Source of the DNA: Escherichia coli
GTDB taxonomy: Bacteria; Pseudomonadota; Gammaproteobacteria; Enterobacterales; Enterobacteriaceae
Assembly: GCF_050920415.1 (NCBI RefSeq)
Contig: NZ_CP169309.1
Direction: 5' to 3' (one strand)
Length of the DNA: 64,000 bases
The notes under the pieces are model-generated. The model did no database searches. It was given only the letters and a program-made list of their open reading frames with translations, and was not told where the DNA came from. The translations under genes were made by a program, and so were the position numbers. Below, piece by piece: positions 58,256-63,880 of this stretch. The number at the start of each line of letters is the position of its first letter. The first letter of the stretch is position 1.

Positions 58256-59089
58256 TTAATTACTCAAACGCTGCGGATGGGTATAAACCGTTGCCCGACC
58301 CGGCTTACAAAAGCCCACCAGCGTCAAATTACAGCGCTCAGCCACTTCTACGGCAAGCGTGGTCGCGGCAGACACCGCAAACAAAATTTCTACGCCGCAC
58401 ATCGCTGACTTTTGCACCATTTCATAACTGGCACGACTGGAAACCAGCACCGCACCTTGCTGCCAGCTTTCCCCTTCTTGTGACCGGCGGCCTAACAGTT
58501 TATCCAGCGCCACATGGCGACCCACGTCTTCATGCCCGCCTACCAGTTCGCCAGATGGCAACATCCAGGCAGCGGCGTGAGTACAACCAGTCAGTTGCCC
58601 CACTGGCTGGAAATCATTGAGATGGCGTAATGCATCATCCAGTTTGTTGAGATCAAATGTCTGAGTGAACGGCAGCGGCTGCACCGGTTTACCGATGTCA
58701 TTAAGTTGCTCCACGCCGCACACGCCACATCCCGTACGTCCCGCCAGTGCCCGACGACGCTCCTTCAACCCCATAAAGCGGCGGCTGGAAAGCTCAATTT
58801 GCACTTCCAGACCATTACAGGAAGGAACGACATCCATACCGAAGATATCGCGCGGACTTTCGATAATCCCCTCGGAAAGCGAAAAACCGAGCGCAAAGTA
58901 TTCAAGGTCTTTGGGCGACGCCATCATCACCACATGCGAAATGCCGTTGTAGACCAGCGCAACGGGAACCTCTTCCGCCACCTCATCTAACCGTGGGTGT
59001 TGTAAATCGTCACGCCGCCATAACTCAATTTGACGAACACCTGTGACATTTGTCACATTTTTGATTTCTTTTTGCTGTGTTTTTTTCAC
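58256..59089 (-). CDS. fdhD: formate dehydrogenase sulfurtransferase / accessory protein FdhD
   Basis: 277-aa [52 protein letters not shown]... recognised as FdhD. Confidence 0.95.
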
Positions 59090-59282
59090 TTTCTATTAAC
59101 CGGATAAGAACACACACACCAACATTATGGTATTCTGTTACAAACCCTTCCTGGATGGAGGGAAATTGAGCCAATTCTGGACCTTTGCGGCCCCTTCCGC
59201 AAAGAAAAATAACTCCCACTCCCTGCACAAGCAGCAAGCGAATGTAAATGGGACGTGACAATGTCGAAACAAGGAGCAATCC

Positions 59283-62200
59283 ATGCAGGTCAGCAGAAGG
59301 CAGTTCTTTAAGATCTGCGCTGGCGGTATGGCAGGCACCACGGCAGCGGCACTGGGTTTTGCACCCAGCGTAGCACTCGCGGAAACCCGGCAGTATAAAC
59401 TGCTGCGCACCCGCGAAACCCGTAATACCTGCACCTATTGTTCCGTAGGCTGTGGGCTGTTGATGTACAGCCTCGGTGACGGAGCAAAAAACGCCAAAGC
59501 ATCTATCTTCCATATCGAAGGTGACCCGGATCACCCGGTCAACCGCGGTGCACTTTGTCCGAAAGGCGCTGGCCTGGTGGATTTCATCCACTCCGAAAGC
59601 CGTCTGAAGTTTCCGGAATACCGTGCGCCAGGTTCTGATAAATGGCAGCAAATCAGTTGGGAAGAGGCGTTTGATCGCATTGCCAAACTGATGAAAGAAG
59701 ACCGCGATGCTAACTACATTGCGCAAAACGCCGAAGGCGTGACTGTTAACCGCTGGCTCTCCACCGGGATGCTGTGTGCTTCCGCGTCGAGTAACGAAAC
59801 CGGCTATTTAACGCAAAAATTCTCCCGCGCGCTGGGTATGCTCGCGGTCGACAACCAGGCGCGTGTCTGACACGGACCAACGGTAGCAAGTCTTGCTCCA
59901 ACATTTGGTCGCGGTGCGATGACCAACCACTGGGTCGACATCAAGAACGCCAACCTCGTCGTGGTGATGGGCGGTAACGCCGCTGAAGCTCACCCGGTCG
60001 GGTTCCGCTGGGCGATGGAAGCCAAAATTCACAACGGCGCGAAGCTGATTGTGATCGATCCTCGCTTTACGCGTACGGCGGCGGTGGCTGACTACTATGC
60101 CCCTATTCGTTCCGGTACTGACATTGCTTTCCTGTCAGGCGTATTGCTGTACCTGCTGAACAATGAAAAATTCAACCGCGAATACACCGAAGCCTATACC
60201 AACGCCAGCCTGATCGTGCGTGAGGATTACGGCTTTGAAGATGGCCTGTTCACCGGCTACGACGCGGAAAAACGCAAGTACGATAAATCCTCCTGGACTT
60301 ACGAACTGGACGAAAACGGCTTCGCCAAACGCGATACCACGCTGCAACATCCGCGCTGCGTGTGGAACTTGCTGAAACAGCACGTTTCCCGTTATACGCC
60401 AGATGTGGTTGAAAACATCTGTGGCACGCCGAAAGACGCGTTCCTGAAAGTCTGCGAATACATCGCCGAAACCAGTGCTCACGATAAAACTGCCTCGTTC
60501 CTTTACGCGCTCGGCTGGACGCAACACTCCGTTGGTGCGCAGAACATTCGTACGATGGCGATGATCCAGCTGCTGCTCGGCAATATGGGGATGGCAGGCG
60601 GCGGCGTTAACGCCCTGCGCGGTCACTCCAACATTCAGGGGCTGACGGACCTGGGGCTGCTGTCGCAGAGCCTGCCAGGTTACATGACGCTGCCAAGCGA
60701 GAAGCAGACCGATCTGCAAACCTACCTTGCCGCCAACACGCCGAAACCGCTGCTGGAAGGCCAGGTTAACTACTGGGGCAATTACCCGAAATTCTTCGTC
60801 TCCATGATGAAGGCCTTCTTTGGTGATAAAGCGACGGCAGAAAACAGCTGGGGCTTTGACTGGTTGCCGAAGTGGGATAAAGGCTACGACGTCCTGCAAT
60901 ACTTCGAGATGATGAAAGAGGGCAAGGTCAATGGCTATATCTGCCAGGGCTTTAACCCTGTTGCCTCATTCCCGAACAAAAACAAAGTGATCGGTTGTCT
61001 GTCGAAACTGAAGTTCCTCGTCACTATCGACCCGCTGAACACTGAAACCTCTAACTTCTGGCAGAACCACGGTGAGCTGAACGAAGTGGACTCGTCGAAG
61101 ATCCAGACCGAAGTGTTCCGTCTGCCATCGACCTGCTTCGCGGAAGAGAACGGTTCAATCGTTAACTCCGGTCGCTGGTTGCAGTGGCACTGGAAAGGTG
61201 CGGACGCCCCGGGGATTGCGCTGACTGATGGCGAGATCCTCTCCGGTATCTTCCTGCGCTTGCGCAAGATGTACGCCGAACAGGGTGGCGCGAACCCGGA
61301 CCAGGTGCTGAACATGACCTGGAACTACGCCATTCCGCATGAGCCGAAGTCGGAAGAAGTAGCGATGGAGAGCAACGGTAAGGCGCTGGCCGATATTACC
61401 GATCCGGCAACCGGTGCGGTTATCGTCAAGAAAGGCCAACAACTTAGCTCGTTCGCACAACTGCGCGATGACGGTACCACCTCCTGTGGCTGCTGGATTT
61501 TCGCCGGTAGCTGGACGCCAGAGGGCAACCAGATGGCACGCCGTGATAACGCCGATCCGTCTGGCCTCGGTAACACGCTGGGCTGGGCATGGGCATGGCC
61601 GCTTAACCGCCGCATTCTGTATAACCGCGCCTCCGCAGATCCGCAGGGTAACCCGTGGGATCCGAAGCGTCAGTTGCTGAAATGGGACGGCACTAAGTGG
61701 ACCGGCTGGGATATTCCGGACTACAGCGCAGCACCTCCGGGCAGTGGCGTCGGGCCGTTTATCATGCAGCAGGAAGGCATGGGGCGTCTGTTTGCCCTCG
61801 ATAAGATGGCGGAAGGTCCGTTCCCGGAACACTACGAGCCGTTTGAAACGCCGCTGGGAACTAACCCGCTGCATCCAAACGTTATCTCGAACCCGGCTGC
61901 ACGTATCTTTAAAGACGACGCCGAAGCATTGGGTAAAGCCGATAAGTTCCCGTATGTCGGAACCACCTATCGTCTGACCGAGCACTTCCACTACTGGACC
62001 AAACACGCGCTGTTGAACGCGATTTTGCAACCAGAGCAGTTTGTGGAAATCGGTGAGTCGCTGGCGAATAAACTTGGCATTGCCCAGGGCGATACCGTGA
62101 AAGTCTCCTCCAACCGTGGCTATATCAAAGCCAAAGCGGTGGTGACCAAACGTATTCGCACGCTGAAAGCGAATGGCAAAGATATCGATACCATCGGTAT

Positions 62201-62333
62201 TCCGATTCACTGGGGCTATGAAGGTGTTGCGAAAAAAGGCTTTATTGCCAATACGTTAACGCCATTCGTTGGTGATGCGAACACGCAGACGCCGGAGTTT
62301 AAATCCTTCCTTGTGAATGTGGAAAAGGTGTAA
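59283..62333 (+). CDS. fdoG: formate dehydrogenase-O major (selenocysteine-containing) subunit; in-frame TGA at 59868-59870 decoded as Sec
   Basis: Track ORFs 59283-59870 and 59919-62333 are in the same frame and together give a 1016-aa protein. N-terminus has a twin-arginine signal (SRRQFFKICAGG). The TGA follows the conserved ...LAVDNQARV context of FdoG/FdnG. Confidence 0.93.
59871..59910 (+). promoter_or_regulatory. SECIS-type stem-loop region immediately 3' of the fdoG selenocysteine codon
   Basis: Bacterial SECIS elements lie directly downstream of the UGA. The sequence cacggaccaacggtagcaagtcttgctccaac contains a hairpin (gcaagtcttgc). Confidence 0.55.
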
Positions 62334-62345
62334 CGGAGACGACAT

Positions 62346-63248
62346 ATGGCTTATCAATCTCAAGATATCATTCGTCGTTCCGCGACTAACGGTCTGACCC
62401 CCGCGCCTCAGGCGCGGGACTTCCAGGAAGAAGTGGCGAAACTCATCGACGTCACCACCTGTATCGGCTGTAAAGCCTGTCAGGTGGCGTGTTCAGAGTG
62501 GAACGACATTCGCGATACCGTCGGCAATAACATTGGGGTGTACGACAACCCCAATGATTTAAGCGCCAAATCGTGGACGGTAATGCGCTTCTCGGAAGTG
62601 GAGCAGAACGACAAACTGGAATGGCTGATCCGCAAAGACGGCTGTATGCACTGTTCCGATCCAGGCTGCCTGAAAGCGTGCCCGGCGGAAGGAGCAATTA
62701 TTCAGTATGCCAACGGTATCGTCGACTTCCAGTCCGAGCAGTGCATCGGCTGCGGTTATTGCATTGCGGGCTGTCCGTTCGACATTCCGCGCCTCAACCC
62801 GGAAGACAACCGCGTCTACAAATGTACACTGTGCGTTGACCGCGTGGTGGTTGGGCAAGAACCGGCCTGCGTGAAGACCTGCCCAACGGGCGCGATTCAC
62901 TTCGGTACGAAAGAGTCGATGAAAACGCTGGCGAGCGAGCGCGTGGCGGAGCTGAAAACCCGTGGTTACGACAATGCGGGTCTGTACGATCCGGCAGGCG
63001 TGGGTGGTACACACGTTATGTACGTGCTGCACCATGCTGACAAGCCGAATCTGTATCATGGCTTGCCGGAGAACCCGGAAATCAGCGAAACCGTGAAATT
63101 CTGGAAAGGCATCTGGAAACCGCTCGCAGCTGTTGGCTTTGCGGCTACCTTCGCAGCCAGTATCTTCCACTACGTGGGTGTCGGTCCGAACCGTGCGGAT
63201 GAGGAAGAGAATAATCTGCACGAAGAGAAAGACGAGGAGCGCAAATGA
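62346..63248 (+). CDS. fdoH: formate dehydrogenase-O iron-sulfur subunit
   Basis: 300-aa ORF with four ferredoxin-type Cys clusters ([45 protein letters not shown]...CVKTCP) and a C-terminal TM anchor. Confidence 0.96.
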
Positions 63249-63880
63249 AACGACGTGACACCATCGTGCGCTACACCGCGCCGGAACGTATCAACCACTG
63301 GATCACCGCCTTCTGCTTCATCCTGGCGGCGGTGAGCGGGCTGGGCTTTTTGTTCCCGTCCTTCAACTGGTTGATGCAAATCATGGGCACACCGCAGCTG
63401 GCGCGAATTCTGCACCCGTTTGTCGGCGTGGTTATGTTTGCCTCGTTCATCATCATGTTTTTCCGTTACTGGCATCACAACCTAATCAATCGGGATGATA
63501 TCTTTTGGGCGAAGAATATTCGTAAGATCGTCGTCAACGAGGAAGTAGGTGACACCGGGCGTTATAACTTCGGTCAGAAATGCGTTTTCTGGGCGGCGAT
63601 TATTTTCCTGGTCCTGCTGCTGGTGAGCGGTGTGATTATCTGGCGTCCTTATTTTGCGCCTGCTTTCTCAATCCCGGTGATCCGATTCGCGTTAATGCTG
63701 CATTCATTTGCCGCAGTGGCGTTAATTGTGGTTATCATGGTGCATATCTACGCCGCCCTTTGGGTGAAAGGCACGATTACCGCCATGGTGGAAGGATGGG
63801 TTACCAGCGCATGGGCGAAGAAACATCACCCACGCTGGTACCGTGAGGTCCGCAAGACAACGGAAAAGAAAGCTGAATGA
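63245..63880 (+). CDS. fdoI: formate dehydrogenase-O cytochrome b556 subunit
   Basis: 211-aa [43 protein letters not shown]...; four TM helices with conserved His ligands. Confidence 0.96.

Follow-up and report, generated by a model that had tools for sequence, protein, structure and literature searches.

The window, i.e., the whole 64-kb stretch of DNA that was analysed, carries an fdo locus with the following genes:

58256..59089, minus strand: fdhD, accessory sulfurtransferase for formate dehydrogenases, divergent, a marker of fdo synteny (TIGR00129, 340 bits, and annotation)
59283..62333, plus strand: fdoG, catalytic alpha subunit of formate dehydrogenase-O (1016 codons plus stop, with UGA as codon 196)
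62346..63248, plus strand: fdoH, iron-sulfur beta subunit (TIGR01582, 478.7 bits, and annotation)
63245..63880, plus strand: fdoI, cytochrome b556 gamma subunit (NF007924, 453.3 bits, cutoff 341)

In both the best-matching record and K-12 MG1655, the gene order is frvR - yiiG - fdhD (divergent) - 3051-nt CDS - fdoH - fdoI - fdhE, and the 3051-nt CDS is named fdoG (b3894) in K-12. Compared with b3894, the window gene has 54 nucleotide differences in 3051 and two amino-acid differences (98.2% nucleotide identity), and its nucleotide identity to K-12 fdnG is approximately 75%. For the gamma subunit, the FdnI model NF007558 scored 243.6 bits, under its cutoff of 339. The alpha subunit, scanned with selenocysteine (Sec) entered as Cys, matched the FdnG/FdoG-type NCBIfam model TIGR01553 over residues 2-1015 (1573.8 bits; cutoff 814.2), and its Pfam domains are Molybdop_Fe4S4 (PF04879, residues 44-103), Molybdopterin (PF00384, 107-589), and Molydop_binding (PF01568, 894-1009). 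A 1.2-kb query around the TGA found matches in 5425 of 5426 complete Escherichia coli genomes, one of the records being 100% identical. Judged by synteny and near-identity to b3894, the gene is fdoG and not fdnG, in agreement with the name given in an earlier sequence-only reading of this DNA.

This gene appears in two pieces in the list of open reading frames (ORFs): 59283..59870 (195 aa, ATG start) and 59919..62333 (804 aa). As each start position is divisible by three, the two ORFs share one frame. Direct reading and one-frame translation of 59283..62333 gave 1016 codons followed by the terminal stop, and the TGA at 59868-59870 is the sole internal stop of the 3051-nt frame. This stop is codon 196, in the context ...LGMLAVDNQARV*HGPTVASLAPTFGRGAMT... 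The sequence-only reading had stated that the TGA splits fdoG into two same-frame ORFs, and the ORF list and the translation bear this out. That reading had also taken the TGA for a selenocysteine codon rather than a disruption, a claim that is upheld by the alignments with proteins of known structure:

59868..59870, plus strand: UGA codon 196, predicted to be decoded as selenocysteine, the active-site molybdenum ligand (alignment with 1kqf_A and 8cm4_A)

In a phmmer search against PDB sequences, FdoG aligned end to end with FdnG (1KQF; 1903 bits), and the homology is unbroken over residues 1-1015, across the TGA. Query position 196 lies opposite X196 of 1kqf_A, i.e., the selenocysteine, and the Sec of the Desulfovibrio FdhA structures (8cm4_A) falls in the same alignment column. 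The UGA codon and its context ARV-U-HGPTVASLAPTF are common to the window gene, K-12 fdoG, and K-12 fdnG. In K-12, fdoG, fdnG, and fdhF each contain one internal TGA in the context ARV-U-HGP. The gene fdoG is one of three selenoprotein genes in E. coli. The three Fdh enzymes of E. coli are all selenoproteins (PMC3160892), and genome recoding left the internal TGAs of fdhF, fdoG, and fdnG unchanged, as Sec codons with UGA-specific SECIS elements (PMC11903333). That the fdoG TGA is a Sec codon is thus already known for E. coli.

Could the TGA be a genuine nonsense mutation, with fdoG a pseudogene that yields a truncated 195-aa product and has a dead downstream part? The mechanical ORF list splits the gene accordingly, and in many public protein sets each half figures as a protein of its own, but the same TGA occurs in K-12 fdoG and fdnG, 5389 of 5433 E. 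coli records have at least 99% identity over the 161 nt that surround it, the TGA is kept at the homologous position in at least 113 loci of other bacteria, and the 820 codons downstream are stop-free and 77% identical to FdnG, with the TGA on the catalytic Sec position; we regard this explanation as extremely improbable. The stop of fdoG is not lineage-specific and the downstream constraint is not relaxed, the two signs by which a pseudogene would be recognized. We conclude that fdoG is almost certainly intact here and that its TGA is the known selenocysteine codon with a conserved mRNA hairpin, a textbook feature.

The region following the TGA was compared with the Rfam models of bacterial SECIS elements, which gave this match:

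59865..59923, plus strand: SECIS element, full match to Rfam SECIS_3 (RF01989; 84.3 bits, gathering threshold 63)

The match has an E-value of 3.3e-20, covers model positions 1-59 of 59, and is the sole SECIS match within the 64-kb window. The UGA occupies positions 4-6 of the SECIS_3 model, and the hairpin starts 1-5 nt after the UGA, inside the reading frame. The fdhF-type model SECIS_2 (RF01988) scored 28.1 bits against a gathering threshold of 70 and was rejected; the element fits the fdnG/fdoG-type model. A match to FdoG1_thermometer upstream was also discarded, being under threshold and having a fold that is not significant.

In the minimum free energy (MFE) fold of 59871-59910, the segment 59875-59880 is paired with 59905-59910 and the segment 59882-59889 with 59893-59899, which defines two nested structures:

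59882..59899, plus strand: apical SECIS stem-loop, putative SelB-binding minihelix (MFE fold; starts 11 nt after the UGA)
59871..59913, plus strand: whole SECIS hairpin with lower helix (Rfam register 59871-59880/59905-59913; MFE register 59875-59880/59905-59910)

In the apical stem-loop, the U at 59884 is bulged and the loop, GUC, spans 59890..59892. Counting from the U of UGA, 59884 is U17, the G at 59890 is G23, and the U at 59891 is U24. In E. coli, the determinants of a SECIS element reside in the apical stem-loop, with U17 and G23 as the bases contacted by SelB (PMC8659212). The apical stem-loop of fdoG has these features, as it begins 11 nt after the UGA and carries the bulged U17 and the loop bases G23/U24. 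The sequence-only reading had noticed a hairpin after the TGA, as expected for a bacterial SECIS, and had proposed folding 59871-59910 for comparison with the known elements. The fold, the SECIS_3 match, and the covariation described below support the former, and the comparison found the element to be identical to the K-12 fdnG SECIS, with an apical architecture as in fdhF.

For the lower helix, the E. coli sequence placed in the Rfam register leaves mismatches of the types A·C and A·G, at 8-48 and 12-44, whereas moving the register 1 nt off that of the family consensus yields six clean pairs. Most non-enterobacterial sequences fit the Rfam lower-helix register better. On these pairings, the lower helix is present in E. 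coli, in a register that is lineage-dependent. The lower stem of SECIS elements makes a modest, sequence-independent contribution (PMC8659212). The folding energy of the hairpin did not differ significantly from those of dinucleotide shuffles (z = -0.1 to -1.9). Because the folding energy is unconvincing, we relied on the covariance model and on covariation instead.

To obtain homologous sites, one genome per species was scanned with a codon-degenerate pattern for RV-U-HGPTVA, which found at least 120 loci. One Streptomyces locus was a chance pattern match without downstream homology and was removed; the matches listed then comprised 69 distinct 62-nt sequences. Parts of the 5' arm were set by the pattern itself, which left the N positions of that arm and the whole 3' arm free to vary. 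The covariation falls exactly in the positions that were left free.

Among the matches listed, the apical helix is 99.4% paired over these 69 distinct homologous sites from other bacteria. Pair 21-33 is GC in 53 of the distinct sequences, AU in 12, and GU in 4, while pair 24-30 is AU in 49, CG in 16, and GC in 4. Columns 21, 33, 24, and 30 are all third-codon positions, and the changes are compensatory. The loop bases G26 and U27 (alignment numbering) are invariant in the same 69 sequences. When the 3' partners were slid by 1-3 columns, pairing fell from 92% to 26-49%, and the observed covariation score was reached by none of 500 shuffles. The SECIS_3 match and the cross-species covariation together show that the predicted hairpin lies far beyond chance.

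A different view is that the hairpin is a by-product of the conserved peptide HGPTVASLAPTFGRG and has no RNA-level function. The peptide is indeed highly conserved, so that coding explains much of the nucleotide conservation, and the weak MFE z-scores point in the same direction. However, the synonymous third positions covary in Watson-Crick fashion (GCA..CUU, GCC..CUG, and GCG..CUC; GUA..GCU versus GUG..GCC), and their base counts are mirror images: among the 113 loci in the matches listed, the third base of Ala+6 is A in 92, C in 16, and G in 5, and that of Leu+8 is T in 92, G in 16, and C in 5. Four-fold degenerate sites, which have entropies of 1.2-1.9 bits in the flanks, are nearly frozen inside the element. 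Among the matches listed, Thr+4 is ACG in 112 of 113 loci, and the third base of Ser+7, which corresponds to U24, is T in 73 of 73. Furthermore, among the matches listed, 22 loci from other Enterobacterales share the 62-nt core at 100% identity, with flanks of only 68-95%. We therefore give hardly any credence to a hairpin that is dictated by the peptide, and we favor an RNA element that acts as a SECIS. The core-identical loci include those of Photorhabdus, Providencia, Yersinia, Citrobacter, Enterobacter, and Klebsiella.

The protein encoded by fdoG is expected to be exported, as judged from its N-terminal region:

59283..59381, plus strand: predicted Tat (twin-arginine) signal peptide, residues 1-33 (read from the translation)

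The twin-arginine motif S-R-R-Q-F-F-K occupies residues 4-10 (59292..59312) and is followed by a hydrophobic stretch that closes in A-L-A at residues 31-33, before the predicted cleavage site. In an alignment with the FdnG precursor in 1KQF, the signal residues correspond one-to-one. A Pfam search of FdoG reported no Tat-signal family, and an NCBIfam search of the N-terminus returned only weak matches, to leading residues of Tat-exported enzymes. With no significant Tat profile, the claim of the sequence-only reading that the upstream part carries a Tat signal rests on the SRRQFFK motif and the 77% identity to FdnG, on which it holds.

Taken with established knowledge of this system, the features above suggest how fdoG may be expressed. 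During translation, the UGA at codon 196 would be recoded as selenocysteine. Immediately 3' of this codon, the mRNA would fold into the SECIS hairpin, whose apical stem-loop would be bound by the C-terminal domain of the specialized elongation factor SelB. This binding, as SelB·GTP·Sec-tRNA(Sec), would take place when the ribosome arrives at the UGA; SelB would bring Sec-tRNA(Sec), made by selC, selA, and selD, into the A site, and Sec would be inserted there against the competition of release factor 2. The 1016-residue Tat-signal precursor would be exported together with FdoH. In the periplasmic active site of formate dehydrogenase-O, Sec196 would serve as a ligand to the molybdenum of the bis-MGD cofactor. 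SelB binding and Sec insertion by the fdoG SECIS may be expected from its identity to the fdnG SECIS and from the literature, and molybdenum ligation likewise from what is established for these enzymes. None of the genes selA, selB, selC, and selD lies within the 64-kb window, in which no tRNA genes were found. Of 5426 complete E. coli genomes, 5424 have the tRNA-Sec gene selC, and the Sec machinery of this strain is presumed from that of its species.

Low-level SelB-independent read-through of UGA occurs in E. coli, and UGAC is a weak termination context. The window fdoG, K-12 fdoG, fdnG, and fdhF all have a UGAC context. A standard tRNA that is near-cognate, that of Trp or Cys, might do most of the decoding of the UGA in place of Sec-tRNA(Sec). 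Against such decoding stand the complete SECIS with its SelB determinants, the near-universal presence of tRNA-Sec in the species, and the loss of the Fdh-N/O activity band in a selC mutant (PMC3160892), and we consider the chance that it accounts for most of the decoding to be very slight. Selenocysteine insertion directed by the SECIS thus remains the preferred explanation for the UGA of fdoG.

The sequence-only reading had further asserted that automated annotation commonly miscalls this gene as a pseudogene, and here the records examined do not agree. No such miscall was seen in the RefSeq records sampled, among which pseudogene flags were read in three only. In each of the 75 RefSeq matches listed, a named CDS covers the TGA. 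Detailed inspection of three records showed a full-length CDS with a protein accession, and in the RefSeq genomes sampled the gene is a single 3051-nt CDS. PGAP gives this gene the name 'fdnG', which is that of the paralogue. One apparent plasmid-borne copy of fdoG was dismissed, as the record inspected (NZ_CP159530.1), although labelled plasmid, holds a chromosomal fdnGHI block and thus no mobile fdoG.

In a public collection of 15 billion proteins, at least 1000 contigs carry the exact 195-aa N-terminal fragment, whose 90% cluster has 3382 members, and 196 contigs carry the exact 804-aa C-terminal fragment, whose cluster has 6687 members. Some of the N-terminal fragments are misnamed 'sulfate ABC transporter substrate-binding protein'. 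The abundance of both halves as separate public proteins indicates that splitting by Sec-unaware gene callers is common, and this splitting, rather than pseudogene calls in RefSeq, is the practical annotation error. For annotation hygiene, fdoG should be called as one selenoprotein CDS of 1016 codons, with codon 196 entered as a translation exception, rather than as two ORFs or a pseudogene. With thousands of split halves in public protein collections, Sec-aware gene calling is still worthwhile.

The nucleotides around the Sec codon are also conserved between the two paralogues. The run of 71 nt at 59865..59935 (-3 to +67) is the longest stretch identical between fdoG and K-12 fdnG gene-wide, the next being 37 nt. 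It includes 23 consecutive codons that are identical between the two genes, compared with 61.5% of same-amino-acid codons gene-wide. The frozen SECIS core of fdoG and fdnG may be under some additional constraint besides the binding of SelB, for example a second role at the RNA level, a lower-helix register specific to the lineage, or recurrent gene conversion between fdoG and fdnG, although we hold this to be a speculative idea that is unlikely to be correct. As a separate observation, the core that is frozen in Enterobacterales covers positions that vary freely in other Proteobacteria.

Among the known systems, K-12 fdoG (b3894) is closest to the gene described here. It has the same locus and synteny, the same length of 3051 nt, the TGA at codon 196, and an identical sequence from -6 to +63. 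The differences are strain-level polymorphism only, with A483 and K689 in the window protein in place of T and S in K-12, respectively. The fdnG SECIS of formate dehydrogenase-N (RF01989) is identical at the nucleotide level over 59865..59935, i.e., over the whole SECIS, and Sec is likewise residue 196 in FdnG, while the FdnG (1KQF) and window FdoG proteins are 77% identical. However, fdnG belongs to a paralogous operon elsewhere (yddG-fdnGHI-yddM) that is regulated differently, and its nucleotide identity to fdoG outside the SECIS is approximately 75%.

The fdhF SECIS of formate dehydrogenase-H (RF01988) is the experimentally dissected prototype. It has in common with fdoG the UGAC context and ARV-U-HGP, as well as an upper stem-loop from position 15 (11 nt after the UGA), a bulged U17, and the loop bases G23-U24. 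In contrast, its stem sequence and downstream codons are unlike those of fdoG, and the apical element consists of 17 nt in fdhF (GGUC loop) compared with 18 nt in fdoG (GUC or AGUCU loop). FdhF also differs from FdoG in being a cytoplasmic protein without a Tat signal and in having its Sec at residue 140.

The RefSeq coding sequence model of fdoG is correct, and its name is that of the paralogue, formate dehydrogenase-N. In all 75 sampled RefSeq E. coli records, PGAP names the gene "fdnG, formate dehydrogenase-N subunit alpha," and the genes adjoining the coding sequence so labelled carry the names fdoH and fdoI.
59283..62333 (+): fdoG coding sequence labelled "fdnG" by RefSeq/PGAP; 5184..8234 in L001, a RefSeq E. 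coli fdoG locus

The two halves of the gene also stand as separate proteins in public collections (protein ids P0001-P0030): the N-terminal half (59283..59867) on at least 1000 contigs and the C-terminal half (59919..62330) on 196. Some of the N-terminal fragments, from Cronobacter and Hafnia, bear the name "sulfate ABC transporter substrate-binding protein."

Upstream of the coding sequence and reaching into its first codons, Rfam gives a match to RF02778 ("FdoG-1 5' UTR thermometer") at 32.2 bits (E = 8e-6), below the gathering score of 50 for this family. The alignment is good only over the Shine-Dalgarno sequence and the first 10 fdoG codons. In the minimum free energy fold of this 5' region, AAGGAGC (59271-59277) is paired with GUUCUUU (59304-59310), but the fold is not significant (z = -0.3). 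The other Rfam matches listed here are above threshold.
59114..59312 (+): sub-threshold RF02778 match, fdhD-fdoG intergenic region and first fdoG codons
40270..40346 (+): naRNA4, 72.6 bits
35224..35265 (+): ES036/CssrF sRNA, 48.2 bits
20490..20547 (+): ClpQY promoter element, 63.6 bits
15838..15890 (-): L31 ribosomal protein leader, 60.1 bits

The match to the degenerate search pattern in Streptomyces sp. ODS25 (L056 509..534) was left out as a chance match; nothing in the translation 3' of it (ARTNSRTQRHFVL) resembles formate dehydrogenase. NZ_CP159530.1, a linear record of 298 kb that bears the label of an E. coli plasmid, holds the chromosomal block narZ-narU-yddG-fdnGHI-yddM-adhP-maeA (L126, 190029-204174), and this record looks like a mislabelled chromosome fragment rather than the carrier of a mobile fdn operon.

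The lower SECIS helix of E. coli fdoG (59871..59913) fits a register that lies 1 nt off the one in the Rfam SECIS_3 consensus. The latter leaves A·C and A·G mismatches in the E. coli sequence; the shifted register forms six standard pairs. All 71 nt of the SECIS core (59865..59935) are identical between E. coli fdoG and fdnG (L003, K-12). Furthermore, 62 nt of this core are identical in 22 loci from other Enterobacterales genera (including L010, L012, L016, L019, L027, L054, and L057), with flanks that are only 68-95% identical. Compared with other Proteobacteria, in which these positions covary, Enterobacterales show a more strongly frozen core.
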